64,000 nt of DNA from an uncultured Elusimicrobia bacterium (GTDB lineage: Bacteria; Elusimicrobiota; Elusimicrobia; 2-01-FULL-59-12). The notes under the pieces were generated by a model that did not search any database, was not told the DNA's origin, and saw only the letters and a program-made list of their open reading frames with translations. This document shows positions 21,157 through 44,147 of the stretch, piece after piece. Location of the stretch: positions 2,418,398 to 2,482,397 of the forward strand of contig OY969767.1 in the NCBI GenBank assembly GCA_963702895.1. Reading direction: 5' to 3'. The position numbers were made by a program, and so were the translations under genes. Each line of letters begins with the position of its first letter. Position 1 is the stretch's first letter.

Positions 21157-21159
21157 TCC

Positions 21160-25365: not shown

Positions 25366-25377
25366 CTGAATTTTCTT

Positions 25378-25791
25378 TTGTTCATGAAACTCTCTCGTCA
25401 CTCCTGGACCTTCTTTTTTCTTCTCCTCTGCTGCATCGTGAATTTTGTATTCCTCTTGCCGAATGGTTGGAAGGCCGCGCAGGCTTTCCGTGACGCCTCT
25501 GGCCTTTCGAACCCCGAACGCCGAATTCTGCAAGGCGGGCATTGGCATCGCGTGGTCACGCAGGTCGCCAGCCAAATTCCTCTCGAAGCTTCGGTCCGAT
25601 TGGTCTCTGCTGCACCACCCTGGTATCTCTCTTATTATTTATATCCGCGGCTTCTGAAAAATGGTTCACGGGTCCTGAGTGAACGGGACGAAGTCCGAAA
25701 GAGGTACCCTTCCGCCTGGGTCTTGGTCTACGTGCTCCCCCCTCACGCGGAATTGACGGCTTATCCCCCGCTCGTTCCAATCCATGAGTGA
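25378..25791 (+). CDS. Hypothetical small membrane protein
   Basis: N-terminal transmembrane segment (WTFFFLLLCCIVNFVFLL). Stop overlaps the start of the downstream membrane-protein gene. No recognised motif. Confidence 0.3.
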   Translation: MFMKLSRHSWTFFFLLLCCIVNFVFLLPNGWKAAQAFRDASGLSNPERRILQGGHWHRVVTQVASQIPLEASVRLVSAAPPWYLSYYLYPRLLKNGSRVLSERDEVRKRYPSAWVLVYVLPPHAELTAYPPLVPIHE

Positions 25792-27163
25792 ACTTGTCGT
25801 GCTTCTGTATTTAGCGTATGTGACCCTCTTGGGTCTGGCCTGGATGCGCTTATTGAAGAAAACCATCGGGTGGGAAGACCTGGCTTGGGGTTTTGGTGTT
25901 GGAACGATCGTTTGGGCATACGCGCAGTTCTTGCTCAATGTTTTCCATATTCAGACGCGCGGTGCCCTGTTTTATGTATGGCAGGCGGGGTTGGTGGCGG
26001 TGCCCCTTCTCTTCTATCGGAGGCCCCAAGCCAGCATCTCTGATTTGAATGGCCGTCAGATTTCGGACTTCAGACTTTGGAAGCCACATTATTGGCTTTG
26101 CATTCCTGTCGCGATCGCTCTCCTCACCTCCCTGCTTCAGGCCCTCACCTTCCCCATGCATATGTGGGACAGCATCGTAATTTATGGGTATAAGGCTAAA
26201 ATACTGTTTTACAAAGAGACGTTTAGAACGGAAGCTTTTCTCGATCCTTCTGTTCTGCATATCAACGCCGATTATCCGTTGCTCATCCCCTATCTGGAAG
26301 CGGGCTTCTACCGATGGCTGGGACACCCGGATGACCGGGCGGTCCGGCTCTTGTTTGTTGGGCACTGGACCGCGTGGCTCGGGATGATCTATGCCGCACT
26401 CTCTCGGAGAATCCACAAAGAGTATGCTTTGGTCGTTTGCGGGGTTGTCGCGACGCTCCCTCTTTTTTCTAGTACGTTTATGGGGCAGGCTGCTTCTGGA
26501 TTTGCCGACATCCCCTTCGGATTTTATTGGACGGGTTTTTTGCTTTGTCTCGTCAAGACGTCTGGAGTCCGAGGCTCAAAGTCGGGGAGCTTGGGTGAGC
26601 CTGCTATGACCGCCTTGTTCGCTTTGGGGTGTGTCTTTACCAAAAATGAAGGTATTCCAGCCGTCATCATCGGACTCGTTTTATGTGCTTTTTCATTACG
26701 TCCTCGTTTCCAGGACTTTGGACTTCGGACGGTATTACCCACGGCGCTTCTGCTTGTTCCCTGGATATGGACAAGGTATTTCCTGCCGCATAACTCCGTC
26801 CATACAGTGCGGCTTCTGGCGCTTCCTTGGGACGAGGCATGGCAGCGAATGTATATCACAGCCTATGCTTTGGGTCGTGAGCTGTTCCATGTGCGGAACT
26901 GGGGCCTCTACTGGATTTTGGTGGCGGCGGGATTGCTGTGGCCAGCGACAAAGCGGCCCTTTCCAAGGGAATCCAAAATGCTCTTCGCGGCCGCGGGGCT
27001 GCAGATGTGTGCCTATGTCTACGCGTACTTAACGTACTCGCAGGATTTTGACTTTGTTTTGCCCATCACGCTCCTTCGGCTGATGGTTCACCTCATTGGC
27101 CCCCTCACGCTGGCGATCGGCTGGCGCCTTGCCGATGATGACCGAGCGGGTGGACCGCGGTAG
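25784..27163 (+). CDS. Polytopic membrane protein, possibly a GT-C-type glycosyltransferase
   Basis: About 12 predicted hydrophobic helices. Sits in a cluster with GT4, GT9 and a DUF1736/TPR protein. No catalytic motif confidently identified. Confidence 0.5.
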   Translation: MSELVVLLYLAYVTLLGLAWMRLLKKTIGWEDLAWGFGVGTIVWAYAQFLLNVFHIQTRGALFYVWQAGLVAVPLLFYRRPQASISDLNGRQISDFRLWKPHYWLCIPVAIALLTSLLQALTFPMHMWDSIVIYGYKAKILFYKETFRTEAFLDPSVLHINADYPLLIPYLEAGFYRWLGHPDDRAVRLLFVGHWTAWLGMIYAALSRRIHKEYALVVCGVVATLPLFSSTFMGQAASGFADIPFGFYWTGFLLCLVKTSGVRGSKSGSLGEPAMTALFALGCVFTKNEGIPAVIIGLVLCAFSLRPRFQDFGLRTVLPTALLLVPWIWTRYFLPHNSVHTVRLLALPWDEAWQRMYITAYALGRELFHVRNWGLYWILVAAGLLWPATKRPFPRESKMLFAAAGLQMCAYVYAYLTYSQDFDFVLPITLLRLMVHLIGPLTLAIGWRLADDDRAGGPR

Positions 27164-27226
27164 GGAAAAGCGAAGAGATCTCTTTGCGGTGGATTGTTGA
27201 TTCCGAGCCTCGAGAGGTGCAACCGC

Positions 27227-27418
27227 TCAGCGGCGAACCAACAACCATCCCAATAACGCTCCGTAGAGCGTGCTGATATAGGGATTCGCGGTGATCGGGC
27301 AAACACCGCTACGACATCCGACGATGCGATGATAAGCATAGCCGGCTAAAGCGCCGAGTCCAATTCCTAAAGTGATTCGCAGCACGGACGTTCTCCTTTC
27401 AGAAGATGCTTTTGACAA
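27227..27418 (-). CDS. Small membrane protein with CxxGxCP motif
   Basis: 63 aa: hydrophobic GIGLGALAGYAY stretch, then VGCRSGVCPITANPYISTLYGALLGWLL; resembles small conserved membrane proteins of unknown function. Confidence 0.4.
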   Translation of the reverse strand: MSKASSERRTSVLRITLGIGLGALAGYAYHRIVGCRSGVCPITANPYISTLYGALLGWLLVRR

Positions 27419-27755
27419 AGGTGCTTGGATTTTGGGGCCTCCCTCGATCGCTCAAACCTCCGCCGCTTGAGGTTCGAAGGGTCGCTTTGGGGGAGCGCGT
27501 GTAAGACGATTGGGCGATCGGTAGCTGAGCGGAATGAGATGGCCCTCTTCGTCCGCAGCTTGGTCGCGCGCAGAATCATTCGTGTATTCATGGAATTCGG
27601 ATTTCATTTGATCATAACAAGTCCAAAACCTGTAATTCCCAGAAAACAAAACGGCGGGTGCCGGGACCTCTGTCTTTCTCAAAGACCAGCAGGCTCCGAG
27701 GTCACGAGCCCGTCAGCGGTTCGGGTTGTGACACCCAGATGGCTATAATCGGTTT

Positions 27756-28940
27756 ATGGTTCTTGAAGCAGGTGCGTTGAACGACAGCCAGAACGCTCAA
27801 AGTCTGGCCCCGATCAAGATTCTCCTGGTCACGGAGAGCTCTGGTTGGAGCGGCGGCGCGGCACAGACCCTCTTGCTCGCCCGCGGCCTGGCAGCACGAA
27901 AGCATGGGGTCTGGATTGCCTGTCAGCGAGGAAGCGAGATTGCCCGTCGCGCGGAGTCTTTCGGCATACCGCTTTTGCTCACCAGGATCCGCGGTGATCT
28001 CGATGTATTGGCCATCTGGGCCCTCCTTCGCTTCGTCCGGAAAAAAGGGATCCAGATTCTTCATGCCCAGCATCCCAAAGCTCACGGCGTGGGGCTCTTC
28101 GCCACGGCGTTGGCTTCGCATTCCTGCTCGTTTCTCGTCACCCGCCGGGTTTCCTTCCCCGTTGGAGAACACCGCTTCAGTCGGTTGAAATACACCTCTT
28201 CTTATGTGGATCGTTATCTCGCCGTCTCCGATGGGGTTAAACAGGTGTTGATTCAAGGGGGTCTTGAGCCCTCCCGCGTCCAAGTGGTCTATAGCGGCGT
28301 GGAAACGGAGGACTTCCGTCCCTCGTCGCCCCAGCAGGTGGAGTCTTTGCGCCACGCCTTGCAGTTGCATCCGAAGGTTCCAACGTTTATCAAAGTGGCC
28401 AATTACTCCCAATGGAAAGGGCAAGAAGTGTTTCTCCGGGCGATCCAACGATACCTATCCTGGGGCCACCCCGGACAATTCATTTTTGCCGGCCGGGCAA
28501 CAGACGGACCTGAAATGACGGGCCTGGTCGATTCTTTGGGCATTCGATCCTCCGTGCGGCGGCTCGGGTTCCGAACGGATGTCGCGGATCTTCTGGCTGC
28601 CAGCGACGCGAGCGTCAATTCCGCCATTGCCGGCGAGGGTTTGTCGGGGGCACTGCGGGAATCTTTATTGCTCGGAATCCCCGTGGTGGCCAGCGACGTG
28701 GCCGGCAACCGGGAACTCGTGCAAGAAGGCGTCACGGGAAAACTCGTTCCCGTGGGGGACTCCGAATCTCTGGCGAAGGCGCTCGTCTGGATGATCCAGA
28801 ACCGAGACGAGGCCCGGCGCCTGGCCGAGCAGGGCCGCCAGCGCGTTCTGACCGAGTTTTCAGCGGACCAAATGGTGCATAAAACCGAGCAAGCCTACCG
28901 TGAACTCCTCACGCAAAAGGAGGGTTCCTCGAAGAGATGA
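27756..28940 (+). CDS. Glycosyltransferase family 4
   Basis: C-terminal GT4 signature EGLSGALRESLLLGIPVVASDVAGNRELV...GKLV; N-terminal Rossmann-like ILLVTESSGWSGGAAQ. Confidence 0.8.
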   Translation: MVLEAGALNDSQNAQSLAPIKILLVTESSGWSGGAAQTLLLARGLAARKHGVWIACQRGSEIARRAESFGIPLLLTRIRGDLDVLAIWALLRFVRKKGIQILHAQHPKAHGVGLFATALASHSCSFLVTRRVSFPVGEHRFSRLKYTSSYVDRYLAVSDGVKQVLIQGGLEPSRVQVVYSGVETEDFRPSSPQQVESLRHALQLHPKVPTFIKVANYSQWKGQEVFLRAIQRYLSWGHPGQFIFAGRATDGPEMTGLVDSLGIRSSVRRLGFRTDVADLLAASDASVNSAIAGEGLSGALRESLLLGIPVVASDVAGNRELVQEGVTGKLVPVGDSESLAKALVWMIQNRDEARRLAEQGRQRVLTEFSADQMVHKTEQAYRELLTQKEGSSKR

Positions 28941-30094
28941 TATCGGCTGAACGCCTCTCAAGAGTACGCAATGCGATTGCTCTGCTTCTCACACCTTCCG
29001 GACCCGCAAAGAAGCTAACACCAGCGGAAGTGCGCCGCCACATGGAGTCAGGGACGATTCGCAAAATCCTGTTTATCCGGCCACAACAGGGCATCGGCGA
29101 CATGCTCTTGACCACGCCTCTTTTTCGCTCACTGAAGGAGAGCTATTCTTCTTTGCGCCTTGATCTGTTGGCAAGCCGACACAACGCCACCGCCATCCGG
29201 GGGAACTCTCGGCTCACGAAGGTGTGGGTTTGGGATAAGAAGGCCATGTGGAACCCTCTCTGGATCTTTCGCTTTTTGAGTGGTTTGCGAAAAGAACAAT
29301 ACGATCTGGTGATCGCTGTCTATAGCCACTCTCCTTCTTTGACGAATCTCCTTCTGGCGAAATGTTTAGGCGTCAAGATCATCTGGTGTTTAGACAGCGC
29401 TGCTTTAACATTAGGACTGAATTGGAGCCAGCGCCTGGCTCAGGTGGAGGTCCAACCCGCACCTGCTTCCGAGCCCGAGTGGAACCGTTACGCGCAGTTG
29501 ATCCGTCCTCTCGTTGATCACGTAGCACCGGAACCCGAGTTTTTCCCAAGTGCCGAGGACCATGCTTGGGCGGAAAGATGGTGGAGCGAAATCCACTGGA
29601 ACTCTAAACTACCGAAGGTGGGACTATTTTTGGCAGGGAACCCGACACGTCCCGACCGATTATGGCCTGTCGTTTCGTGGGTGAAATTAGCAGAACGTTT
29701 CTTGCAGAATCAAAACGCAGAGCTGATCGCCATCAATCCTCCGCCAGGTCATCGGACGGGAACGGGCAAGGTGGAGACAGGCATGTATGCCCCGTTCTGC
29801 GCCGCGCTCGGCCGAGAGATCCCTCTGTACAAAGAACGAGGTCTCGGGACTGTCGCGGCACTCTTCCAACGCCTCCAGCTCTTCCTCTGCCCCGACGGCG
29901 GCATTTTTCATGTTGCGGTCGCTTGCCGCGTCCCCACACTGGGGCTTTTTTTCCAGACCGATCCCAAGCGGTGGTGTCCTTCCGTCCCCTGGGCCAACGC
30001 CATCAAAATACCCGCGGGCGAGGCAACAGAGGAGACCCTCATGACGGTTTATCAAAAGGTGGAACATCTGCTGCGCCATCAAGATCGTTGTTAA
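28937..30094 (+). CDS. Glycosyltransferase family 9 (heptosyltransferase-like)
   Basis: IRKILFIRPQQGIGDMLLTTPLFRSLKE GT9 N-terminal signature. Start overlaps the GT4 stop. Confidence 0.8.
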   Translation: MISAERLSRVRNAIALLLTPSGPAKKLTPAEVRRHMESGTIRKILFIRPQQGIGDMLLTTPLFRSLKESYSSLRLDLLASRHNATAIRGNSRLTKVWVWDKKAMWNPLWIFRFLSGLRKEQYDLVIAVYSHSPSLTNLLLAKCLGVKIIWCLDSAALTLGLNWSQRLAQVEVQPAPASEPEWNRYAQLIRPLVDHVAPEPEFFPSAEDHAWAERWWSEIHWNSKLPKVGLFLAGNPTRPDRLWPVVSWVKLAERFLQNQNAELIAINPPPGHRTGTGKVETGMYAPFCAALGREIPLYKERGLGTVAALFQRLQLFLCPDGGIFHVAVACRVPTLGLFFQTDPKRWCPSVPWANAIKIPAGEATEETLMTVYQKVEHLLRHQDRC

Positions 30095-30174
30095 GAGTCC
30101 TCCTCTGCGCTGGGGCAAGGCCACCCCGCATAGAAATTCAGATCTAAAAAAACTACATTCTGTCGCGTATAGCT

Positions 30175-32067
30175 ATGGATAAGCCTCTTTCACCGCCGCG
30201 TTTTCGAATCATTCTGCCTTTACTCGTTGCCGTGTTGACGTTCGTGGCCTTTTCCCCAGCGCTCAAGAATGGCTTCCTGGCCTGGGATGACCTGGACAAT
30301 TACGTCAAGAATCCCCACTTTAGAGGTTTTGGCCTGGAGCACCTCCGGTGGATGTTCACCACCTACCACATGGGGCCGTACCAGCCTTTGAGTTGGCTCA
30401 CGAGCGCCTTGGATTACAAAATATGGGCGTTGGACCCAAAGGGTTATCACCTCACGAACCTTCTGATTCAGAGTCTCAATGGTGTTGTGTTCTTTTATTT
30501 CGTACGGCGGGTCCTTCTGTTCGCTTGGGATCGACCGGATACACAGAGGAATATTCTAGGGGCATCGTTTCTTGCCGCTTTGTTTTTTTCCATCCATCCT
30601 CTCCGTGTGGAGTCGGTGGTCTGGGCGACGGAACGCCGCGACGTTCTTTCAGGGCTCTTCTTTCTGTTGGCAGGCTGGGCGTATCTGAAGCGCTGGCCAA
30701 CCCTGACCGGAGGGCCGGAAGAAACGCGGTGGTACCCATGGTCCCTGGTGCTCTTTCTTCTCGGTCTCTTATCCAAAGCAACCACGGTTGGGCTCCTCTG
30801 GGTCTTGATAGCGCTGGATGTTTTCCCTCTGCGCCGCCTGGCGACGGATCCCCGCCGGTGGTTCAGGCGGGAGAGCTGGCCGATTTGGCGCGAGAAGATT
30901 CCGTTCTTCGTCCTGGGAGCTGCCGCCGTGATCAACGGCGCCCTGGGCCTCACCCAAGCGATGAGTCCTTACAGTCTTACGGAGCGCCTGTCGTTCTTCT
31001 TCTATGGGACCATCTTCTACCTTCAAAAAACGATTTGGCCTGGCGAGTTGTCGCCTCTGTATGAAGTGCCGTACGTCTTTCAAAGCATGGCAGGCTCGTT
31101 TGCTGCCTGCGCCATTCTTTCGCTTGTGCTGACGGCCATCTTCCTTGGCCTCTATCGCCGTTCTCCGGCCTTCCTCCTCGCCTGGGGATGCTACCTCCTC
31201 ATCTTCGCGCCGGTCTCGGGGCTCGCCCAAAACGGCCCGCAGCTGGTCGCCGCGCGCTACAGCTATTTATCCTGCATTCCGTGGCCTTTTCTCCTGGCGG
31301 GATTTCTCCTCAAGCGCCGTTCCGCGTGGCTGCCGATGGCCGCGCTCTTGGGGGTGCTGGGATGGCAGACATGGGCGCAAACTCACCATTGGCGGGATGA
31401 TCTGTCCCTGTGGGGACATGCCCTGGAGATGGATCCCAAGAACAGCCGGGCCCATAACAATTACGGCGCGGCGCTGATGAAGAAGGGCCGCCTGGAAGAA
31501 GCCGCGGCCCACTATGAACAATCCCTGGAGCTGAACCCGACCCTGGCGGAAGCTTACCGGGACATGGGGCTTGTGCTCATGGAACAAAAGAAGCCGCAAG
31601 AGGCCCTCGCCTATTACAAGAATGCTGAAGCGCTTCGCGCTTCAGTTCCTGAGCTGGCCGTCAACATGGCAGCGGCTTACTACGCGCTTGGCAAGATCGA
31701 TGAAGCGATTACGTACTACCAAAAAGCGCTTGATCTGCACACGCCCCATGAGGCGGAAGTGTTCAGCAACCTGGCCCTGTCTTATATGCTCAAGGGCAAC
31801 ACCGAAATGGCGATCGCCTATTATGAGAAAGCAAGAAACCTCAGGCCCGATCTTCCGCAGGTCCGGCTGAACCTCGCGACGGCCTACGCGAAGCTCGGCC
31901 GACGGGAAGAAGCCATCAAGGAAGCGCAAGCGGCGCTGGATATAAAACCGGACTATGCCAAGGCCCACTATCTGTTGGGGAAGCTTTTGACTGAATCCGG
32001 GAGAGCTGAGGAAGGCGCGGAACATCTTCGTCAAGCCGAACGCTTGGGCCTTCCTACGAAGAAGTAA
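30175..32067 (+). CDS. DUF1736 membrane domain fused to TPR repeats (TMTC-like putative protein O-glycosyltransferase)
   Basis: N-terminal multi-helix membrane domain (FLAWDDLDNYVKNPHFRGF ... ) followed by at least six TPR repeats (AHNNYGAALMKKGRLEEAAAHYEQSLELNP etc.). Confidence 0.75.
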   Translation: MDKPLSPPRFRIILPLLVAVLTFVAFSPALKNGFLAWDDLDNYVKNPHFRGFGLEHLRWMFTTYHMGPYQPLSWLTSALDYKIWALDPKGYHLTNLLIQSLNGVVFFYFVRRVLLFAWDRPDTQRNILGASFLAALFFSIHPLRVESVVWATERRDVLSGLFFLLAGWAYLKRWPTLTGGPEETRWYPWSLVLFLLGLLSKATTVGLLWVLIALDVFPLRRLATDPRRWFRRESWPIWREKIPFFVLGAAAVINGALGLTQAMSPYSLTERLSFFFYGTIFYLQKTIWPGELSPLYEVPYVFQSMAGSFAACAILSLVLTAIFLGLYRRSPAFLLAWGCYLLIFAPVSGLAQNGPQLVAARYSYLSCIPWPFLLAGFLLKRRSAWLPMAALLGVLGWQTWAQTHHWRDDLSLWGHALEMDPKNSRAHNNYGAALMKKGRLEEAAAHYEQSLELNPTLAEAYRDMGLVLMEQKKPQEALAYYKNAEALRASVPELAVNMAAAYYALGKIDEAITYYQKALDLHTPHEAEVFSNLALSYMLKGNTEMAIAYYEKARNLRPDLPQVRLNLATAYAKLGRREEAIKEAQAALDIKPDYAKAHYLLGKLLTESGRAEEGAEHLRQAERLGLPTKK

Positions 32068-32300: not shown

Positions 32301-33347
32301 TCAAGAGGTTTTCGCGGCGGGCTCGTAAGCGCAATAGGGTTCTTCCGACTGGACGTTCCCCGTCGCGTAATACCCTCGGGCACGACACCCGCCACAGACA
32401 TCCTTAAAGTCGCACACCCCGCAGCGACCTTCCAACAGGTCTGAGTTTCGCAGCGAACGAAAGAGCGTGGCGCTCTCCCAAATCTTCTGGAAGGGCTCTT
32501 GGCGAATGTTGCCAGCCGCCTGGGGCAAGTAGCCGCAAGGGAACACGTCACCCTTGTGCGAGATAAAGCACATGTGAATGCCGGCCAGGCACCCTTTGCG
32601 GTCGCTCGAGATGGGGTTGGCCTGTGGTGCTTCAAGACTTTCATGCTCTATACGGTAGATGTGCGGCGCGCAAATGGCTTTGAGCGGAAGGGACCCTGGC
32701 TTGTCGTGCTCGCAAACCCACTTGAGCCATTCTTCCACTTCGGAGCTGCTCAGCATCTGGGAGTCGGCGATCTGGACCCCGCAACCCACGGGCACAAGGA
32801 GAAAGAGGTAGAGCGCCGCTGCCTTGGACTCTTTGGCGAGCGCATAGACCTGCTCGATCTGGTCCTTGTTTTGACGCGTGACGGTGAAATTGATCTGGAC
32901 CTTCAAGCCAGCCTCACGCAGAAGACTCATGCCCTGGAGTGTTTTTTCAAAAGTGCCGGGGCCTCTAAATTTGTCATGGGTCTCCGCTGTTGCACCATCC
33001 AGGGAAACCGAGGCGTAATAAATCCCGACTTGCCGAATCTTTTCAGCCATGGGCTTGTCGACAAGGGTTCCGTTCGTCGAAAGCGCTATGGGCAGGCCGC
33101 AATTCTTGGCGTAGGCCGCGAGCTCAAATAAGTCCTTACGGTATAAGGGTTCTCCGCCAGAAAAGATGAGCACAGGCCTTCCCATGGACTGCAGGTCCTT
33201 GATGAGTGCCATGCCCTCTTCCGTCGTGAGTTCGTCCTTGGCGGGCTGATCCAAAATATCCAAGCGACGGCAATGGATGCAACGCAAGTTGCAGCCTGCG
33301 GTCGTTTCCCAATACACCCTTCGTAAGTGAGGATTCCAAACGGTCAT
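32301..33347 (-). CDS. Radical SAM enzyme with C-terminal SPASM domain (AhbD/NirJ-like)
   Basis: CNLRCIHC CxxxCxxC radical-SAM cluster motif near the N-terminus and a Cys-rich SPASM-type C-terminus (CGVCDFKDVCGGCRARGY...EPYC). Confidence 0.8.
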   Translation of the reverse strand: MTVWNPHLRRVYWETTAGCNLRCIHCRRLDILDQPAKDELTTEEGMALIKDLQSMGRPVLIFSGGEPLYRKDLFELAAYAKNCGLPIALSTNGTLVDKPMAEKIRQVGIYYASVSLDGATAETHDKFRGPGTFEKTLQGMSLLREAGLKVQINFTVTRQNKDQIEQVYALAKESKAAALYLFLLVPVGCGVQIADSQMLSSSEVEEWLKWVCEHDKPGSLPLKAICAPHIYRIEHESLEAPQANPISSDRKGCLAGIHMCFISHKGDVFPCGYLPQAAGNIRQEPFQKIWESATLFRSLRNSDLLEGRCGVCDFKDVCGGCRARGYYATGNVQSEEPYCAYEPAAKTS

Positions 33348-33401
33348 TCGATTTACGCCTGCATTATACCAAGGCGGCTTCCAAGCCCTTAAGATTTCCG
33401 A

Positions 33402-35069
33402 TCAGAGCGCCCGAAGCGCCTCCAGAACCTGAGAGACGGTGAGAAACTCTGAAAGGAGGATGGGTTCTCCGCCGGGGCGGTACAAGGCGTAAAAAGGGAT
33501 GCCGGCGCGGCCGTACTTCATCAGATAGCGGCCGATGGCAGGATCACGGTTAGTCCAGTCCGCTTTCATGAGGACCACGCGACGTTTCGCAAACTCTGAC
33601 ATGACCCGCGCATCCGCCAGAACAAAGCGCTCGTTGTATTTGCAGGTCACACACCAGTCCGCTGTGACATCAACCAAGACAGGTCTTCCTTCGTTCAAAT
33701 AGCGTGGAATGGCCGGTTCATCAAAGGCACCCCAAGTGGAACTGGCTTGGGCTTGCGCCGGGCGCTCCTTCTGCTGTTGATAGAGGACCCAGCCCAGCCA
33801 GGCCGCTGTGGCAAAAAGCAAGATGGCGAACCCTTTCTTGAGCGTGACCATCCAGGCCCCTGGCTTAGGGAGCCAACGGATGCTCTGGGGAAAGGCGGCA
33901 AGCGCGAGATACGGAAGTGCCATTCCCACCCCGACCGCCGTGAAGGTCATCAAGATGACGGAAGACGGCTGGGAAAGCGCGAAGCCCATAGCCGTTCCCA
34001 GGTAGGGAGCTGAGCAGGGTGTGGCGAGGAGCGTTGCCAAGAGTCCCGAAACAAAATGAGCGGGAAGCGTCTCGTGATAGCCATAGGACGTCGCGAAATG
34101 ACCGAGGAAACGTGGCATTTGAATTTCAAAGACCCCCCACAGGTTCAACGCAAAAAAGAGAACGACCGCCATGAGAAAGGCGACAAAGACGGGGTTCTGG
34201 AACTGGATTCCCCACCCAATCGCGTGTCCCGCCCGGCGGGCGAGGATCGCGACAAGGGCCAGGACCTCAAAGGAAACCAGGATCCCGGCAAAAGACGCCA
34301 GGGAACTTTTCACCACATCAGAGGAAGATTGCCCGGAGTGTTGGAGAAGTCCCGCGAGCTTGATGGAGAGCACGGGCAGCACGCAAGGCATCACATTGAG
34401 AAGCACGCCCCCCAAAAAAGCGAGGAGCAAGATGACGAGGAGCGATCCTTTCCTGTCCGTCCCTGGCTCCATGCCGACCCCTGGAAACTTCTCGAGGGTT
34501 GGCGCCCGCTTCATGATTTCCTCATCCGTCATGCTGCCGGCGGGGACTTTCCTGAGCGCTTCCTGGATCAGACGATCTGCTTCGGCGTCCGGGTGGGCGA
34601 CGGGTCCCGCGGGCAAATCAAGGGTGAAGGTGTAGTCGTAGGCCACGCAAGAGGTATAACAGGTGAGATAGGACAGGTCCACGACGATGCGGACGCTGCC
34701 GCCAGTCAGTTTGGCCTTGATGGGATAGACCGTCTCGCCGTCGTAGCCAAATTCTTCGATGGGGCCTGGGAGGAGGATGCGCGTCGGGGCGGGCCAAAGA
34801 AGCCGGGCGTCGCGAAAGCCTCGGGACTCTTTCCACCGGAGGCGGGGAGGGTAACCGCTTTCTCCCGGCACCTTCCAGTAGAGATACCAGTCCGGGGCCG
34901 GCTTGAAATGCAGCCCCAGGAGGATCTCCCCAGAAGCCGGCACGGTATTCCAAGCGGAGACGAGCCTGACCGCTCCATGAGGATTGGATTGCCACTTTGT
35001 GGAAACAGCCTCGACGGTCCGAATGGCGGAGAGGGAGCACAGAAGAGCGAAGACGTAGCGTTTCGTCAC
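33402..35069 (-). CDS. dsbD: DsbD-family thiol:disulfide interchange protein (CcdA-like membrane core with C-terminal thioredoxin domain)
   Basis: Membrane core with paired Cys (NVMPCVLPVL ... LLATPCSAPYLG) and C-terminal thioredoxin-like domain with WCVTCK CxxC. Confidence 0.75.
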   Translation of the reverse strand: MTKRYVFALLCSLSAIRTVEAVSTKWQSNPHGAVRLVSAWNTVPASGEILLGLHFKPAPDWYLYWKVPGESGYPPRLRWKESRGFRDARLLWPAPTRILLPGPIEEFGYDGETVYPIKAKLTGGSVRIVVDLSYLTCYTSCVAYDYTFTLDLPAGPVAHPDAEADRLIQEALRKVPAGSMTDEEIMKRAPTLEKFPGVGMEPGTDRKGSLLVILLLAFLGGVLLNVMPCVLPVLSIKLAGLLQHSGQSSSDVVKSSLASFAGILVSFEVLALVAILARRAGHAIGWGIQFQNPVFVAFLMAVVLFFALNLWGVFEIQMPRFLGHFATSYGYHETLPAHFVSGLLATLLATPCSAPYLGTAMGFALSQPSSVILMTFTAVGVGMALPYLALAAFPQSIRWLPKPGAWMVTLKKGFAILLFATAAWLGWVLYQQQKERPAQAQASSTWGAFDEPAIPRYLNEGRPVLVDVTADWCVTCKYNERFVLADARVMSEFAKRRVVLMKADWTNRDPAIGRYLMKYGRAGIPFYALYRPGGEPILLSEFLTVSQVLEALRAL

Positions 35070-35413
35070 TGAAACAGGTGGTCTAATTTCTCTGGGGGGC
35101 GGGCGATGACGGCCCGATCCCCCAACACCACGACGGGGCGCTCGATCAGGATTGGGTTTTCATGGAGAACTTTGATCCACTCGGCACGTGAAAGGTCTTT
35201 ATCCGCGAATTTCTCTTGGTAGAGCGGCTCTTTCTTCCTCAGAAGCATCTGAGGCTCAAGCTTGAGTTTCTTCAAGAGCGCGTCGAGTTCAGCAAGAGAA
35301 GGCGGCGTTTTGAGGTACTCAATGGCTGTGATGTCGGCGCCCTTCTTCTTGAGCGCCTTCATCACTTTCTGGCAGGTGCCGCATGTCGGCTTATGGTAGA
35401 GCGTGATTTTCAT
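35066..35413 (-). CDS. ArsC/Spx-family thioredoxin-fold protein
   Basis: MKITLYHKPTCGTCQK N-terminal CxxC motif; about 115 aa from this Met. The longer track ORF (to 35524) adds an implausible N-terminal extension. Stop overlaps the dsbD start. Confidence 0.65.
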   Translation of the reverse strand: MKITLYHKPTCGTCQKVMKALKKKGADITAIEYLKTPPSLAELDALLKKLKLEPQMLLRKKEPLYQEKFADKDLSRAEWIKVLHENPILIERPVVVLGDRAVIARPPEKLDHLFQ

Positions 35414-37330: not shown

Positions 37331-37849
37331 TTATGGTTTGATGATTTCCGGTCCTTTGCTCACGCCGGGCGGGATGATTATATCAGGGCCTTTTTTCTCC
37401 GTCGCCTTTTCGGCGGACGCCTCGGACTTGCGGACTTCGTCAGCAAAGTTGAGCTCCAGGTCGGACACCAGGTTGTCGAGCATCTCCTGTTCTTTGACGC
37501 TCAAGTTTCCTTCCGTCTTTTCCTGAAGCATGCGCAAGAACTCAATCGAGATGCGGGCCTGATCGATGTCCTTTTCGATCTTCTGGGTCACCGGATGGGG
37601 CACTTTCCCCAGCTGCGCCCAGGCGGCAGACCCCAAGGACATCACCAGCGTCAAAAACCGGTAATCGTCCACAACGCTATCAGGCGGACGAGCGCCTGTT
37701 GTGTGGCGCTCGGCTTCTCCTGGCATTTCAATTTTTTCTTCTGACACAACCACCCTCCTTGCCGTCACCCCAGCGGATTGTGAGCCGGGGTCCATCGTTA
37801 TTGGCGTAGGCATGATGGATCCCCCACTTACAGCCGTGGGGGATGACAC
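37331..37849 (-). CDS. DUF1844-like protein; N-terminal region overlaps a palindromic repeat, so the true start may be internal
   Basis: C-terminal part (LTLVMSLGSAAWAQLGKVPHPVTQKIEKDIDQARISIEFLRMLQEKTEGNLSVKEQEMLDNLVSDLELNF) matches the small conserved family commonly encoded beside gltX. The N-terminal about 40 codons lie on palindromic-repeat sequence. Confidence 0.55.
   Translation of the reverse strand: MSSPTAVSGGSIMPTPITMDPGSQSAGVTARRVVVSEEKIEMPGEAERHTTGARPPDSVVDDYRFLTLVMSLGSAAWAQLGKVPHPVTQKIEKDIDQARISIEFLRMLQEKTEGNLSVKEQEMLDNLVSDLELNFADEVRKSEASAEKATEKKGPDIIIPPGVSKGPEIIKP
37762..37849. repeat. Palindromic element pair overlapping the 5' end of the DUF1844-like ORF
   Basis: CATGATGGATCCCCCA-CTTACAGCC-GTGGGGGATGACAC plus an adjacent GGACCCCGGCTCACAATCCGCTGGGGTGACGG unit. 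Near-identical to the element inside metH at about 47011-47127. Confidence 0.5.
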
Positions 37850-39334
37850 CTAGATTACTTTTGCCTGCAAAAGTTGTTGGGCCTTCTTAATACGCTCGAG
37901 CGTGCGTTTCTTTCCTAAAAATTCCACCATGTGCCAAAGGCTTGGCCCTTCCGTCCGCCCGGACACGCAAACGCGCAAGGGATGAAACACGGCACCGTTC
38001 TTGACCCCTTTATCTTTGGCCAAGGTCTTGCATAGGTTCTCAATGCCCGGCACGTCAAAGGGCTCAAGCGCCGCCAGGCGCTTGACAAGTTCTTCGATGA
38101 TCCCCGCAGCACCCTCGGCGCGAAGCACTTTGCCCACCGCCTCCTCTCGATACTCGTAATCATCCCAGAGAAGAAAATCCGTGAGCTTCGGAACATCCGA
38201 GAGCAGCTTGACTTTTTCGAGCTCGAGGGCGACCGCTGCCTCATAAGTGGACGCAGGCACAGCGGATATGTCTTTGCCCTTGTAGAAGGGTTCCGCCAGG
38301 GCAGCCAGTTCCCGAGCGGACGTTTTGCGGATGTATTCGCCGTTCATCCACAAAAGCTTCGTGGGATCAAAGGTCGCGGCGCTTTTGCCGCAGCGTTCAA
38401 TCTGAAATTTTTCCACCATCTCTTGCTGCGTGAACAGCTGCTGGCTGTCTTCGGTCCCCCAGCCAAGAAGAGCGAGATAATTCAGCAGCGCGTTCGGGAG
38501 ATACCCCGCGTCCCGGTACTCCGTGACAGAGGTCGCGCCATGCCGCTTGGAGAGCCGGGCGCCATCGGAACCCAGGATCATCGCCAGATGCGCAAATTGT
38601 GGCACCTGCCAGCCCAGCGCCTCGTAAACGAGCATCTGCCGCGGCGTGTTGGAGAGGTGGTCATCGCCGCGGATCACATGGCTGATCTTCATGAGATGGT
38701 CGTCCACCACGCAAGCGAAGTTGTAGGTCGGCACCCCCGTCGACTTGAGGACCACGAAATCTTCCATGAGAGCATTCTCAAAAACTTTGACGCCATGGAT
38801 GAGATCCGTAAAGCGCGTCTCGCCCACATGCGGGGTCTTAAAACGGATGGATTTCTTCCGCCCCTGGGCTTCCTTGGCTTTTCGCTCATCAGCGCTCAGG
38901 TTGCGGCACCTGCCGTCATACTTGGGAGGCCTTTTGGCAAGGAGCGCGAGCTCCCGCATTTTCTCCACTTCTTCTGGAGTGCAGTAACAGGGATAGGCAA
39001 ACCCCTTCTTCAGCAGCTCGTCGCACGCGGCCCAATAGCCTGCCAGGCGTTGCATCTGATAGTAGGGACCATAGTCGCCCTTCACTCCTCTGCCATCGGC
39101 GGTTGGCCCTTCGTCCCAATCGAGGCCCAGCCACTTCATGGACTCGAGGATCCCGTTGACAGACTCATCTGTGGAGCGCACTTCATCGGTATCTTCAATC
39201 CGAAGAATGAACGTCCCCTGATGGTGACGGGCAAAGAGCCAGTTAAACAGGGCTGTACGCGCCCCGCCGATATGGAGGAAACCCGTGGGCGAAGGCGCAA
39301 ACCGGACGCGGATAGACGGTTTATCCATAGACAT
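37850..39334 (-). CDS. gltX: Glutamyl-tRNA synthetase
   Basis: HIGH-region (RFAPSPTGFLHIGGARTALFN) and KMSKS-like RLSKRHG. 494 aa. Confidence 0.9.
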   Translation of the reverse strand: MSMDKPSIRVRFAPSPTGFLHIGGARTALFNWLFARHHQGTFILRIEDTDEVRSTDESVNGILESMKWLGLDWDEGPTADGRGVKGDYGPYYQMQRLAGYWAACDELLKKGFAYPCYCTPEEVEKMRELALLAKRPPKYDGRCRNLSADERKAKEAQGRKKSIRFKTPHVGETRFTDLIHGVKVFENALMEDFVVLKSTGVPTYNFACVVDDHLMKISHVIRGDDHLSNTPRQMLVYEALGWQVPQFAHLAMILGSDGARLSKRHGATSVTEYRDAGYLPNALLNYLALLGWGTEDSQQLFTQQEMVEKFQIERCGKSAATFDPTKLLWMNGEYIRKTSARELAALAEPFYKGKDISAVPASTYEAAVALELEKVKLLSDVPKLTDFLLWDDYEYREEAVGKVLRAEGAAGIIEELVKRLAALEPFDVPGIENLCKTLAKDKGVKNGAVFHPLRVCVSGRTEGPSLWHMVEFLGKKRTLERIKKAQQLLQAKVI

Positions 39335-39432: not shown

Positions 39433-41820
39433 ATGACCATCACACCGCATTTTCGCCACTACCTGAGCCTCTTTTTGATGGCGATGAGCATCATTGTCTG
39501 GGAAATTTTGCTCACGCGCATCTACAGTGTGGTACTGTTCTACCATTTTGCGTTTATGGCTGTTTCGATTGCGATGTTTGGGCTCTCTATGGGCGCCGCT
39601 TGCGTCGCCCTGCAAAAAGTGGATCGTTCTTCAGAGTCTCCCCTGTCCGACCGTATGCTGGCAGCGCTCGGCCTGCTCACAGGGGTTCTCATGGTGCTGG
39701 CGATCACGTTGCAGTTAAGCTTGCCCATCCCGCCCACACGCAATCCGTGGCAGCTCTTTGGGGTACTTTTCCGAACGTACGTGCTTTCATCGCTTCCGTT
39801 TTTCCCGGCAGGGGCTTTTATATGTCTATTGCTTACGCGCTCCAAGCAAGTGGGACGGCTCTATGCTGTGGATTTGATCGCCGCAGGGCTTGGATGCGCG
39901 CTGATCCCCGTTCTTCTTTCAGTCTTCGGAGGCCCTGGGGCCACCCTGGTGGCAGCAGCGCTGGCCGGCGGTTCTGCTCTTTGTTTTCTCCCAAGGAAAT
40001 CACGCGCGTCCAGGGTGGCATGGCTTTTGGTCGTAGGGCTCTTGCTGGGGGCCTTGATCAACCGATCAGCCCAAGTCCTGCGCGTGCGTTGGCGGCACAA
40101 CGGCCCGGTTCCTATCCCTTTATTTGAAAAATGGAACTCCTTTTCGCGCATTATGATCCAGCCGGGCGGGTCCAGCAATCTGAATTGGGGAGTTGAAGAG
40201 ACCTGGAGACGTCAACTGACGCCGGCTCCTCAACTTCAGCTTGAAATTGACTCCGGGGCCGGGACCGCCATCACGCATTTTGACGGGAGACTGGAACCTC
40301 TTCGTTTTTTACAGTACGACATCACGTCGTTTGCTCATTACTTGCGGCCCCAATCCAAAGTGCTCATCATCGGGCCGGGCGGCGGCCGCGATGTGTTGGC
40401 GGCCTTAAGCTTCAAACAGGTCTCCGTGCATGCCGTTGAAGTCAACCCCTCTATTCTATACGCCGTCAATGACGTCTTCGGTGATTTCACGGGCCGCTTG
40501 AACAAACGCCCCGACGTTCACTTCGTGGTTGATGAAGGCCGGAGCTACTTACATCACGAACAACAACCCTTTGACATCATCCAAGCCTCCCTTGTGGATA
40601 CGGTGGCGGCCACGGCCTCTGGCGCCTATTCCTTTGTCGAAAACGGCCTCTACACCGTTGAAGCATGGCGGCTTTTTCTCCATCGGCTCACGCCGCGGGG
40701 CCTTCTGTCCTTTTCACGTTGGTATTTTGGGTCCACGACTTGGCCCGTGGAAGTGTGCCGCACGGTAGCGCTCGCCGCTGAAGCCCTCCGCCAGGAAAGC
40801 AAAAGACCTCAAGACCACATTCTGGTCATCCGCAACAGCAATTTGCGGCCGCCGAAAGAAGGCATCGCGACGGTCCTGGTCTCACGTGAACCCTTTTCAT
40901 CTTCGGACTGGGCCAAAGCTTTTGAAACATGCCGGCGGCTCCATTGCGAAATCGCTCTGGCCAAGGGACAAGGGGAACCTCTGCTCGCGTCCATCGTCGG
41001 GACCACCAACCCGCGCGCGCTGTACGCCGAACTTCCCTTGGACATCTCACCGCCCTCGGACAACAAACCTTATTTCTTTTTCCATGCAAGACTGCGGGAT
41101 ATTCTTCGGTTTCGTCAGAGCCCGCAATTCGGGGCCTCAGGCTTCAACTTGCCCGCCGTCCGCATTCTGGTCGAGTTAAGTTTGATTACGCTTGCTCTGT
41201 CCGCCCTCATGGTGGTTTGGCCCTACCGCATCCTAAGTCGCAGAACGTCTTGGGCGCCCGTGCCTGCTCGACGGTCTGTTGGGATGCCTTTCTATTTTGG
41301 ACTGATCGGTCTTGCTTTTATGTTCCTTGAAATTGGGTGGATGCAGCGCTTCAGCCTTTTCCTTGGTCACCCAACCTATGGGTTCACTGTGATATTGCTG
41401 GGACTTCTCGTCATGAGCGGTCTCGGGAGTTGGTGGGTCACTTCTACGAAGCTTTTGAGCGACCAATCGCGTCGGTGGATTCCATTGCTCCTCATTCCAC
41501 TTCTGCTCATCTCCAATAGGGTGGTCCAGATATTTTTGCCACAGTGGATGGGATCTCCCCTGGAGGTCCGCATTCTAATTACGCTGCTTTCGATCAGTCC
41601 TCCGGCGATCGTGATGGGCATGTTTTTCCCCCTGGCCATGGCGCCTGCTCAGCGCTGGATGGCGGACCGGGTAGGATGGCTATGGGCCATCAACGGCGCC
41701 CTGTCGGTGACAGGCTCCGTGCTCGCGATGGTTTGTTCGTTGGCGTTCGGCATCAGCGGGACTCTAATGCTGGGAACGGGCGCTTATTTCTTGGCTGCGA
41801 TCCTGCTTTTACTCCTCTAA
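39433..41820 (+). CDS. Membrane protein with central spermidine-synthase-like (SAM-dependent) domain flanked by transmembrane regions
   Basis: Multiple N- and C-terminal hydrophobic helices. Central VLIIGPGGGRDVLAALSFKQVSVHAVEVNPSILYAVNDVF ... FDIIQASL resembles the spermidine/spermine synthase fold. Confidence 0.7.
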   Translation: MTITPHFRHYLSLFLMAMSIIVWEILLTRIYSVVLFYHFAFMAVSIAMFGLSMGAACVALQKVDRSSESPLSDRMLAALGLLTGVLMVLAITLQLSLPIPPTRNPWQLFGVLFRTYVLSSLPFFPAGAFICLLLTRSKQVGRLYAVDLIAAGLGCALIPVLLSVFGGPGATLVAAALAGGSALCFLPRKSRASRVAWLLVVGLLLGALINRSAQVLRVRWRHNGPVPIPLFEKWNSFSRIMIQPGGSSNLNWGVEETWRRQLTPAPQLQLEIDSGAGTAITHFDGRLEPLRFLQYDITSFAHYLRPQSKVLIIGPGGGRDVLAALSFKQVSVHAVEVNPSILYAVNDVFGDFTGRLNKRPDVHFVVDEGRSYLHHEQQPFDIIQASLVDTVAATASGAYSFVENGLYTVEAWRLFLHRLTPRGLLSFSRWYFGSTTWPVEVCRTVALAAEALRQESKRPQDHILVIRNSNLRPPKEGIATVLVSREPFSSSDWAKAFETCRRLHCEIALAKGQGEPLLASIVGTTNPRALYAELPLDISPPSDNKPYFFFHARLRDILRFRQSPQFGASGFNLPAVRILVELSLITLALSALMVVWPYRILSRRTSWAPVPARRSVGMPFYFGLIGLAFMFLEIGWMQRFSLFLGHPTYGFTVILLGLLVMSGLGSWWVTSTKLLSDQSRRWIPLLLIPLLLISNRVVQIFLPQWMGSPLEVRILITLLSISPPAIVMGMFFPLAMAPAQRWMADRVGWLWAINGALSVTGSVLAMVCSLAFGISGTLMLGTGAYFLAAILLLLL

Positions 41821-44147
41821 GCCAATAATCCCCACGTGTGAAGGAGGTCCCCTTCATGCCGCCACCGGAACCCGATGTCGGTGCGGTAGAACATGTTGGG
41901 GATGATGATGGTTTTGACGCGGGAGTAGGCCTCGCGGTGGGCTTCTTCCATGGTGGACCCGGAACCGGTGATCACGAGCGCATACCCGTCGCGTCCCGTG
42001 ATCTTCCAGTCGCCGTCTTCGAGTTTGACGTCGCCAAGATGGATCCCGTCCATCCCAGGCTTGGTGAATATCACGACCGCGTCCTCGGAAAACTTGCGGA
42101 ACGTATCCAAGTCGGCAAAGGGCCAAGGAGGAAGCGCGATGACCACCCCCACCTGAAATCCTTTTTGTGTTTTGAGGTTATAGGGCTTTTTGTTAGCAAG
42201 CGCGTAGAGAAATTCTCCCCACGGGCTCTGGATGCCCTCCATTTGGATGCTGACCGTCGGGTAGCCAAAACGTGGGGTGATCTCCAAGGGGTAGACGTTG
42301 CGGGCCGTGGCGATGCAATTGATATCAAAATAACCCACGTAGCCTGCTTCTTTGAGGCGCGGCACCATTTTCTCGATCGTTTCGCGGTAGAGCCGGCTGG
42401 GTCCCGTCCAAAACATCGAGGTATTTCCACACCACAAAGGCTTTCCATTTCTCCTAACATAGAGCGTGTGATAAGGAACTGTGACACAGTAGACACGCCC
42501 TTTGTAATCAACCACGGTCGTATCTCTGCGGTCAAGCCACGCGTTTGTCTTTTGGATCCTTTCGATCACTTCGTAGCAGGGATGGACCTTTTGAAAGACT
42601 CTCGTTCCGATCTTGCCTCCACGACGTAAGCGCCGTTTGACGATTCCGACACGACCCATCTTGAGAAGCAGTTCTTGGACGTCGTCCGCTAATCGAGGAG
42701 AAGAGGTGTAGTAAATTCGAAAACCGGTGCGCTGTTTATTCCCGTCCCCTAAACACATATGGTCGAAGAGAATCGCTAATTGGCGAGGGGATTGCTCCTT
42801 GTATTCCGAGGGAATATATTTCGTGAGCGCGTGACCGAAAGGCTTAAGATACGCCCACAAGCGCTTGTCGTAGCATTTCCAGCCTCCTTTCACCTTTCTA
42901 AAACGGAATGGCAACCTTTCAATCGTCTCTTGAACGGCACGCGCCTTCCGGGCATTCACTTGAGAGATGCCGACCTGATAAGATTTCTCGGAAGTCCAGC
43001 CTTCCGCGAGCCAGAGCCCAAGGAATGCCAGCCAATGGTCCATCGCCATGAGCAAGGGCTGGAACTTGTCCCTGCTTAGGCCATGCCCAGAACGTCCTCT
43101 TAATGCAGGCAACGAAAACACGGCTTCTTCCTTGCCTTTCCAACAACCCGAGCGCGGCACCACAAATTGGTGGGGAAGATTTTTCGCTTTCACAAAGGTC
43201 CACTGTTTTTTCTTGCGATATCGCGTGGCTTCCTGGCCGAACATCTGGTGGTCGAGCGTCACAAGCAGATCGGTTGCTCGATTGCGAATACGGACCATTT
43301 TCTTGTGATGATCGAACTGAACAACAGCGGATGGTCTATGATATTCGATCTCATCGGACTCGGGGTTCACACTGGCAAAGCGATCCTCCAGAGAAACATC
43401 CCGAAATCTTTTCCAACCGCCCTGCGTAAGCACTTCCGTCTCCTCGTCATAACAGCCCATCTCTCCTGTAGAGGGGCCGATTTCACCGGCAAAGAGTTTC
43501 TTGTGCTCGAAGTTGATGCAGACGGGCATGATGAACTCTTGTCCATTGAAGAAACCACCGACCGCAACTTCAATACCTGAGACAAACTTTTGGATTTGCA
43601 GACGGCGCACTTTGGATCCCCAGCCGACTTTGTACCGGTCTAAAATCGCGACGACGTCTTTCCCGTCTTCTTCATGACCCACGAAAGAAAGGACTTTGTC
43701 GTTTTGCGCTTTGCCGGAGGGTTTCACCACGTAGCGGGCAGGATTTTTTATAACAAACTTGGTCGCTTCATCGAAGGAATCGAATTCCCAGGAGTCCGGG
43801 ATCGTGAGGCCCACGGCCTTCATCTCCTGAGCTCCGAAGTCGCGGTCAAGCTCCAAGCGATCTGAATAAGAAGATCCTCCGACCACGGGCTTGCCTTCTT
43901 TGCGCAGACGGTCCGCGATCGTCCCGAACGCGGCATCATCGATGATGATGAGGTCCGCCCAGTCTTTATGCGATTCCCATTCGTCCACTTTATCGAGAAA
44001 TCCATCATAGAGCACACGGTCGGCTTTGGACTGCACGAACCATTTGACGTTGTAGCCTTCGAGTTTGAGACGGTAAGCGAGGTCGCCCGCACAGGCCTCA
44101 AAGGAGAGGAAGAGAATATTTTTCGGTTTTCCGTTGCCGTTTGCCAT
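41817..44147 (-). CDS. Divergent PurD-like ATP-grasp ligase interrupted by an intein
   Basis: Extein matches the PurD family core (FEHKKLFAGEIGPSTGEMG; PLEITPRFGYP; C-terminal FYRTDIG) but lacks the canonical PurD N-terminal GGREHA motif. A 344-aa insertion sits between GEMG and TSMFW. Coordinates are from the ORF track; my hand reading of the printed sequence around 43440 and 44100 did not reproduce this frame exactly. Confidence 0.7.
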   Translation of the reverse strand: MANGNGKPKNILFLSFEACAGDLAYRLKLEGYNVKWFVQSKADRVLYDGFLDKVDEWESHKDWADLIIIDDAAFGTIADRLRKEGKPVVGGSSYSDRLELDRDFGAQEMKAVGLTIPDSWEFDSFDEATKFVIKNPARYVVKPSGKAQNDKVLSFVGHEEDGKDVVAILDRYKVGWGSKVRRLQIQKFVSGIEVAVGGFFNGQEFIMPVCINFEHKKLFAGEIGPSTGEMGCYDEETEVLTQGGWKRFRDVSLEDRFASVNPESDEIEYHRPSAVVQFDHHKKMVRIRNRATDLLVTLDHQMFGQEATRYRKKKQWTFVKAKNLPHQFVVPRSGCWKGKEEAVFSLPALRGRSGHGLSRDKFQPLLMAMDHWLAFLGLWLAEGWTSEKSYQVGISQVNARKARAVQETIERLPFRFRKVKGGWKCYDKRLWAYLKPFGHALTKYIPSEYKEQSPRQLAILFDHMCLGDGNKQRTGFRIYYTSSPRLADDVQELLLKMGRVGIVKRRLRRGGKIGTRVFQKVHPCYEVIERIQKTNAWLDRRDTTVVDYKGRVYCVTVPYHTLYVRRNGKPLWCGNTSMFWTGPSRLYRETIEKMVPRLKEAGYVGYFDINCIATARNVYPLEITPRFGYPTVSIQMEGIQSPWGEFLYALANKKPYNLKTQKGFQVGVVIALPPWPFADLDTFRKFSEDAVVIFTKPGMDGIHLGDVKLEDGDWKITGRDGYALVITGSGSTMEEAHREAYSRVKTIIIPNMFYRTDIGFRWRHEGDLLHTWGLLA
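42423..43454 (-). other. Putative intein with LAGLIDADG-like motifs inside the PurD-like gene (about 344 aa; boundaries approximate)
   Basis: Insertion begins with Cys (CYDEETEVLTQGG) right after the conserved GEMG loop and ends ...KPLWCGN followed by Thr+1. Internal motifs LGLWLAEGW and LFDHMCLGDGNK. The penultimate residue is Gly rather than the usual His. Confidence 0.6.

Follow-up and report, generated by a model that had tools for sequence, protein, structure and literature searches.

A candidate AhbD-type heme b synthase near hemE-hemH-hemY in an Elusimicrobia genome

Layout of the locus

We analysed a 64,000-nucleotide stretch of DNA from an uncultured Elusimicrobia bacterium (hereafter the window; contig OY969767.1 of assembly GCA_963702895.1, positions 2,418,398 to 2,482,397), in which a gene for a radical S-adenosylmethionine (SAM) enzyme with a SPASM domain lies next to genes for a DsbD-type transporter and an ArsC-like protein. 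An earlier note on this DNA had read the three as an operon joining a thiol-redox module to the SPASM enzyme, and had named the enzyme as a candidate for the last, AhbD-type step of heme synthesis. Calling of open reading frames (ORFs) together with family matches confirmed three co-oriented ORFs on the minus strand; the note had placed them correctly, and each has a strong family match:

32301-33347, minus strand: radical SAM/SPASM protein of 348 amino acids, a putative AhbD-like heme b synthase (oxygen-independent coproheme decarboxylase) and member of an Elusimicrobia-specific clade
33348-33401, minus strand: intergenic gap of 54 nt between dsbD and the AhbD-like gene
33402-35069, minus strand: DsbD-type thiol:disulfide reductant transporter of 555 amino acids, with a signal peptide, an alpha domain, a transmembrane domain and a thioredoxin-like gamma domain
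35066-35413, minus strand: ArsC/Spx-fold protein of 115 amino acids with a CGTC (CXXC) motif

The junctions had been described as overlapping. This is true of arsC and dsbD, which share 4 nt (GTGA, 35066-35069), but not of dsbD and the radical SAM gene, which are separated by the 54-nt gap. A consensus scan of 33348-33401 found neither a terminator-like site nor a full sigma-70 promoter, and the AhbD-like ATG is not preceded by an obvious Shine-Dalgarno sequence. The gap does contain an extended -10-like element, TGgTATAAT, 15 nt 5' of this ATG, which could act as an internal promoter whose leader would be very short. dsbD and the AhbD-like gene may be co-transcribed; the gap sequence and the consensus scan argue neither for nor against it. 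The gene 3' of the AhbD-like gene is convergent. A 4.5-kb contig (L001) is identical to the window sequence, and a plasmid search gave no match.

The hemE-hemH-hemY block that the earlier note had reported was confirmed by profile matches at 20077-23808 on the plus strand, 8.5 kb from the AhbD-like gene:

20077-21156, plus strand: hemE, uroporphyrinogen decarboxylase (TIGR01464, 407 bits, cutoff 303)
21160-22299, plus strand: hemH, ferrochelatase, closest to coproporphyrin ferrochelatases (CpfC) (TIGR00109, 161 bits, cutoff 125)
22300-23808, plus strand: hemY, HemY-type FAD oxidase, probably the coproporphyrinogen oxidase CgoX (TIGR00562, 287 bits, cutoff 98)

We compared HemY and HemH with enzymes of the coproporphyrin and protoporphyrin routes. 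HemY scored 293 bits against PDB 3I6D, which we take to be the Bacillus subtilis enzyme now called CgoX, versus 214 bits against 2IVD, presumably the PgoX of Myxococcus xanthus. The best PDB matches of HemH were entries named 'Coproporphyrin III ferrochelatase' (200 bits; 169 for the Bacillus type), while human PpfC reached 132 bits in a set of comparators that held no bacterial PpfC structure. Residue markers that separate CpfC from PpfC, taken from the Listeria enzyme, were tried and set aside because they did not discriminate: Y46 and S53 are general, and the position of Listeria CpfC Y12 is Phe both in this HemH and in the best-matching CpfC structure. Outside Elusimicrobia, the closest named HemY homologues come from Acidobacteria and Planctomycetes, the two diderm phyla reported to have the coproporphyrin route (PMC10991733). 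HemY and HemH are thus closest to coproporphyrin-pathway enzymes, which is suggestive, but not decisive, of a coproporphyrin-type pathway.

The coproheme decarboxylase of the coproporphyrin-dependent pathway is ChdC (HemQ), and the earlier note had stated that the window holds none. Consistent with this, no chlorite-dismutase-family match was found among plausible window ORFs of at least 150 amino acids, and a tblastn search of the 64-kb window with a Listeria ChdC sequence (an exact match to PDB 6FXJ) returned chance matches only (E >= 0.8). A tblastn search of 95 fetched loci also found no ChdC homologue.

The radical SAM enzyme and the AhbD family

The protein encoded at 32301-33347 matches the Pfam families Radical_SAM (E 2.7e-30) and SPASM (E 6.9e-09). 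Its best NCBIfam model is AhbD (TIGR04545), at 397 bits, with residues 11-343 aligned to model positions 2-339 of 339. The runner-up models, TIGR04053 (307 bits) and NirJ2 (TIGR04055, the Firmicutes-type AhbD; 303 bits), belong to the same superfamily radiation and score 90-94 bits lower, leaving AhbD ~90 bits ahead. NirJ2 is an older name for AhbD (PMC10991733). AhbC and NirJ, homologous SPASM enzymes that act on iron tetrapyrroles and are 31-37% identical to this protein, score 212 and 208 bits, respectively. An exhaustive search of 1.84 billion cluster representatives (50% identity) returned the 150 nearest, ten of which were labelled; for all ten, the best model was AhbD, NirJ2 or TIGR04053. 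A scan of a genome-contig collection with the AhbD-like protein found two distant loci only.

We then placed the protein in neighbour-joining trees (100 bootstraps) of 284 aligned sequences, comprising database homologues, proteins of the fetched loci and ten AhbC-like paralogs as outgroup. These trees are distance-based and rough. The protein falls inside an Elusimicrobia-type clade with 97% bootstrap support, and the AhbD family is split from the AhbC paralogs at 100%. The nearest tree neighbours of the clade include the protein of locus L012, which is AhbC-linked and 51% identical, and that of L017, which scores 460 bits to AhbD and whose gene is followed directly downstream by hemY, a HemY-type oxidase. 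The phylogenetic placement that the earlier note had proposed as a check therefore puts the enzyme inside the AhbD radiation, apart from the AhbC/NirJ paralogs, and it did not cluster with non-heme SPASM maturases. At 90% identity the Elusimicrobia clade falls into more than 70 sequence clusters, and those of its members that NCBI names are called only 'radical SAM protein'.

Residue patterns point the same way. The radical SAM motif CX3CX2C is formed by C19, C23 and C26 and is invariant across the clade. In AhbD, the full SPASM motif that ligates auxiliary clusters I and II (AuxI and AuxII) is CX20-33CX17CX36-37CX2CX5CX2CX17-35C (Fix et al. 2023, PMC10452713), and this protein matches it exactly, as C226-X26-C253-X17-C271-X37-C309-X2-C312-X5-C318-X2-C321-X17-C339. 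As reference AhbDs, we used 23 metagenome loci in which an AhbC-like paralog lies 1-3 kb from an AhbD-family gene. Of the 96 positions conserved in at least 90% of these 23 AhbC-linked AhbDs, 87 (91%) are retained in the radical SAM protein. A further comparison identified 25 AhbD-specific positions, common to the clade and the AhbC-linked AhbDs and different in AhbC; they include E14, R28, H124, Q151, N153, R232, H264 and R300. Together with the model scores (208-212 bits) and the tree, these 25 positions discriminate the protein from AhbC and NirJ.

The earlier note had also offered an alternative, a peptide or cofactor maturase, and we considered a form of it in which a peptide or protein maturase would act together with the DsbD/ArsC-like module. 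Peptide maturation is a frequent role of SPASM enzymes, only 54 nt separate the gene from dsbD upstream of it, and the AlphaFold (AF2) model of the protein (pLDDT 92.4) has PqqE, SuiB, SkfB and anSME as its nearest solved folds; the same PDB comparison found no solved AhbD structure. In this model, however, the barrel starts at residue 10 and the radical SAM motif at residue 19, and therefore there is no room for an RRE/PqqD-like peptide-recognition domain. The ORF list of the window shows no small co-oriented ORF for a precursor adjoining the gene, whose downstream neighbour is convergent. Models for peptide and cofactor maturases (MftC, PqqE, sactipeptide and other enzymes for ribosomally synthesized and post-translationally modified peptides) score 93-180 bits against cutoffs of 265-725, and in none of eight relatives does a recognisable dsbD adjoin the gene (see below). 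We thus consider a maturase very improbable, and the AhbD-type reading the better account of the enzyme.

A related observation concerns a locus from a Solirubrobacteraceae metagenome-assembled genome (L010, 251-3555), where a TIGR04053 member (443 bits, above cutoff) is encoded divergently from hemE-hemH. Its heme linkage parallels that of the present locus; the L010 protein lacks the four AuxI cysteines that are present in the protein of the window. This locus hints that the uncharacterised TIGR04053 family could be an actinobacterial AhbD-type coproheme decarboxylase.

Gene context in relatives and the DsbD/ArsC-like pair

We compared the context of eight AhbD-like relatives, 57-72% identical, seven of them with DNA. 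In none of the eight does a recognisable dsbD or arsC adjoin the AhbD-like gene; for the closest relative (P0002, 72% identity, on a 3-kb contig), the upstream neighbour is an unidentifiable 38-residue fragment. The neighbours of the AhbD-like gene are as follows:

L002: multihaem cytochromes, a cytochrome b fusion, an MtrB-like porin and ResB/CcsA
L008: cytochromes, NrfD and NuoE/F-like proteins
L009: NrfH/NrfA and GluTR within 10 kb
L003: a thioredoxin-reductase-like flavoprotein overlapping the stop codon
L007: a protein with a MamS/MamX-type domain
L005: a copper oxidase and COX1 fragments
L094: an NrfD/DsrP-like protein
P0002 contig: a 2-hydroxyacid dehydrogenase

Several further features recur around these genes. 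Redox flavoproteins are encoded 3' of the AhbD-like gene in L003 (10001-11925) and L008 (10001-13327): in L003 and L004 a thioredoxin-reductase-like gene (TIGR01292, 224 bits) overlaps the AhbD-like stop codon, and in L008 NuoE-like and NuoF-like genes follow. These flavoproteins are possible electron partners of the radical SAM enzyme. A Crp/Fnr-family regulator gene lies 3-6 kb upstream in four relatives (L003 4020-4700; L007 5166-5834; L008 5057-5779; L009 5734-6414). A search of the 250 nt 5' of the AhbD-like gene for an FNR box (TTGAT-N4-ATCAA, at most two mismatches) gave nothing except one weak match in L003, and this search, together with a promoter and terminator scan, found nothing usable in the window or upstream of clade members. 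Two relatives from different subclades share a cluster 1-5 kb from the AhbD-like gene (L003 12007-19105; L094 868-8531), which contains radical SAM proteins, a B12-binding radical SAM protein, a homologue of tyrosine phenol-lyase (696 bits, cutoff 721) and a 535-residue fusion of an isochorismatase-like domain with a weak radical SAM match.

The contexts of HemY homologues were different. Three relatives share the order M1 peptidase, hemE-hemH-hemY, convergent dsbD, DUF1844, gltX, purD, in which dsbD follows hemY immediately or with one gene between. The DsbD orthologues beside hemY are 60% identical in L093 and 48% in L092, and GltX is 73-74% identical in both. L093 alone of the three has an ArsC-like gene there; it overlaps dsbD, and its product is 68% identical and keeps the CGTC motif. 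L093 and L002 are parts of one 943-kb contig, which carries hemEHY and the AhbD-like gene ~230 kb apart. A second apparent linkage, of an AhbD-like gene (P0055) and a HemY gene (P0381) on one 12,439-bp contig, was rejected, as the contig of P0055 has no hemY. The corresponding features of the window are:

16165-18660, minus strand: M1 peptidase with HEAT repeats, a synteny anchor upstream of hemE in relatives
24025-32067, plus strand: block of ~8 kb between hemY and the AhbD-like gene in this genome only, not part of the heme system
37331-39334, minus strand: DUF1844 protein and gltX (glutamyl-tRNA synthetase), synteny anchors after dsbD/arsC in relatives

Compared with the relatives' order, the window has additional genes separating the peptidase from hemE and a Band_7 gene following arsC, and its hemY and dsbD are parted by the 8-kb block and the AhbD-like gene. 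The block encodes a TrpB-like enzyme, a 459-residue protein with no assigned function, a GT4 glycosyltransferase, a heptosyltransferase-like protein and a TPR protein. Directly upstream of hemE, 18526-20045 (plus strand) holds two ORFs without family matches, one of them secreted-looking; the second (165 amino acids) has an N-terminus resembling a prepilin/pseudopilin signal (GWMLTELLILLVIV). Both are absent at the equivalent L092 position.

These comparisons do not bear out the idea that the redox module and the radical SAM enzyme form a functional unit. Because relatives keep dsbD beside hemEHY and the AhbD-like gene elsewhere, the three-gene 'operon' is specific to this genome. In contrast, dsbD is an ancestral hemEHY neighbour, accompanied by arsC in at least two genomes, and the pair is separate from the AhbD-like gene.

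The same loci bear on whether this is a true AhbD of the siroheme-dependent (Ahb) route, with AhbA, AhbB and AhbC encoded elsewhere and the proximity of hemEHY coincidental. AhbD was defined in that route, and an AhbC-like paralog lies within 1-3 kb in 23 of the 80 AhbD-family metagenome loci. However, tblastn found no AhbC-like paralog within 10 kb in any of the seven clade relatives with DNA, and none was noted in the window, where no systematic search was made; moreover, a complete hemE-hemH-hemY operon would already yield coproheme. We regard a siroheme-route enzyme as having a slim chance, and favour an AhbD-type enzyme that would act after hemEHY.

For the redox pair, DsbD has the Pfam domains DsbD_N, DsbD_TM and Thioredoxin_7 and all six redox cysteines (C137/C141, C229/C352 and C473/C476). 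It thus shares the three-domain layout and the six cysteines of E. coli DsbD (NF001419), but scores 114 bits to that model, under its cutoff of 330. The ArsC-like protein matches the ArsC family (Pfam, E 1.2e-14) and scores 99.2 bits to TIGR00014 arsC (cutoff 106.05). Against glutaredoxin-type arsenate reductases in the PDB (E 1.7e-18), the fold is shared, and C11, R59, R92 and R105 fall on the conserved Cys and three Arg, which we take to be catalytic, as in R773 ArsC. It differs from ArsC in its lower score, in an extra cysteine, C14, that creates a CGTC motif as in Spx-type CXXC proteins, and in its translational coupling to dsbD, which is no known arsenate-resistance arrangement. The second cysteine and the coupling argue for a role other than arsenate reductase, and the conserved coupling suggests that the protein may be a cytoplasmic partner of DsbD. 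Our literature search found no description of an ArsC-DsbD pair. The simplest interpretation is that DsbD feeds reductant into the periplasm for cytochrome c maturation, a role that fits both its location next to heme genes and the many cytochrome genes around the loci of relatives.

Elsewhere in the window, two genes carry apparent inteins: a ribonucleotide reductase (63-3905, plus strand), with Intein_splicing and LAGLIDADG_3 matches inside the barrel domain, and purD (GARS; 41817-44147, minus strand; 776 amino acids), with LAGLIDADG_3 between GARS_A and GARS_C. The purD product of L093 has 438 amino acids only. An IS110-family transposase (DEDD_Tnp_IS110 and Transposase_20) is encoded at 9087-10130 (plus strand). 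Five ORFs of 307-795 amino acids have no Pfam match at E <= 1e-5 (13590-15023, 25784-27163, 39433-41820, 52391-53680 and 59397-60320); that at 25784-27163 has no NCBIfam match either.

A candidate last step of heme synthesis

We conclude that the gene at 32301-33347 probably encodes an AhbD-type radical SAM heme b synthase that completes the hemEHY pathway. The candidate named in the earlier note has gained support from the best full-length model, the position inside the AhbD radiation, the SPASM cysteine motif and the 91% of conserved positions kept. In the pathway we propose, where the genes are identified and the steps inferred, HemE would produce coproporphyrinogen III, which a CgoX-type HemY would oxidise to coproporphyrin III; a CpfC-type HemH would then insert iron to give coproheme, and the AhbD-like enzyme would convert coproheme to heme b without oxygen. 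As in characterised AhbD, the cluster held by C19, C23 and C26 would cleave SAM reductively, the resulting 5'-deoxyadenosyl radical would take a hydrogen from a propionate side chain, and the two SPASM auxiliary [4Fe-4S] clusters would carry the electron away. Two rounds of this reaction would turn two propionates into vinyl groups. ChdC/HemQ would catalyse the same overall conversion of coproheme into heme b after HemY and HemH, but has an unrelated fold and chemistry, being chlorite-dismutase-like and oxidant dependent. DsbD and the ArsC-like CXXC protein would form a separate unit that moves reducing equivalents through the membrane, with cytochrome c maturation as the most plausible use; only in this genome has the AhbD-like gene ended up close downstream of dsbD. 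The locus is therefore a loose heme/cytochrome biogenesis neighbourhood and not a dedicated three-gene machine.

Such a pathway has been suggested before. According to reviews, AhbD is present in coproporphyrin-pathway organisms without other Ahb enzymes, where the anaerobic step is one for which an enzyme like AhbD 'might be responsible', a bioinformatic and untested proposal made for Gram-positive bacteria (PMC13564367, PMC10114771). Our literature search found no account of heme synthesis in Elusimicrobia.

Compared with AhbD as characterised in Methanosarcina barkeri and Desulfovibrio vulgaris, the protein shares the full-length best model, the CX3CX2C and eight-cysteine SPASM motifs, the 87 conserved positions and 40-51% identity to AhbC-adjacent AhbDs; it differs in its score, in its separate clade, in four conserved positions, and in being linked to hemE-hemH-hemY with no AhbA, AhbB or AhbC noted nearby. 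Some of these differences, and other results, weigh against our conclusion. The score of 397 bits is 103 bits under the curated AhbD equivalog cutoff of 500. Sub-cutoff scores are, however, common in the family, because AhbC-linked and named heme b synthases also miss 500 bits: the AhbC-adjacent AhbD of L012 scores 478, and the proteins that NCBI (P0094) and JGI (P0095) name heme b synthase score 479 and 432, respectively, while other Elusimicrobia-clade members reach 364-395. The sister group of the clade has a bootstrap value of 2%. Clade-wide changes occur at four AhbD-conserved positions (R111 to Y, H180 to Y, Y204 to V and T225 to I). The gene context varies, and in L003 and L094 the AhbD-like gene lies near the tyrosine phenol-lyase/radical SAM cluster, which has no known heme link. 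ChdC, AhbA/B/C or CgdC/CgdH may be present elsewhere in the 2.72-Mb genome. Finally, HemY-type oxidases require oxygen whereas AhbD is anaerobic, so that the pathway would mix both.

Several of these points would also fit a diverged AhbD paralog with another substrate, either coproporphyrinogen III (a CgdH-like enzyme of the protoporphyrin route) or another tetrapyrrole or carboxylated cofactor. The score under the cutoff, the four clade-specific changes, which include an Arg and a His, and the variable context with its recurrent non-heme-looking neighbourhood in L003 and L094 all favour divergence, and the order of steps is not fixable from sequence alone. Nevertheless, the protein keeps 91% of the AhbD-conserved and all 25 AhbD-specific positions, HemY and HemH are nearer to coproporphyrin-type than to protoporphyrin-type enzymes, and several relatives have their AhbD-like gene among cytochrome genes. 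We consider a change of substrate unlikely, and retain coproheme as the probable substrate of an AhbD-type enzyme.

A broader proposal can be drawn from the same observations: that in this Elusimicrobia lineage a distinct AhbD subfamily, as yet without annotation, is the sole coproheme decarboxylase of a diderm coproporphyrin-type pathway, that the conserved ArsC-like CXXC protein, coupled to dsbD in translation, serves DsbD as its own cytoplasmic source of electrons in the place of thioredoxin, and that hemEHY, the AhbD-like gene, dsbD and arsC form one co-regulated heme/cytochrome c island. Taken as a whole, this proposal is doubtful.

If the enzyme is indeed of AhbD type, the last step of heme synthesis would be filled in an Elusimicrobia genome. 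This would fill a gap and not add a new kind of system, and the understanding of heme synthesis is unchanged by it. What is new here is the well-supported Elusimicrobia clade, its physical linkage to hemEHY in one genome, and dsbD, with or without an ArsC-like CXXC gene, as a conserved hemEHY neighbour in the lineage. Annotation pipelines have left the whole clade unnamed, because its scores fall under the strict cutoff of the AhbD model. The assignment would be of use in metabolic reconstruction and offers a candidate 'AhbD-like' enzyme from a coproporphyrin-pathway organism. It would also bring a diderm phylum into the group of organisms whose coproporphyrin-type pathway apparently ends with an AhbD-type enzyme.

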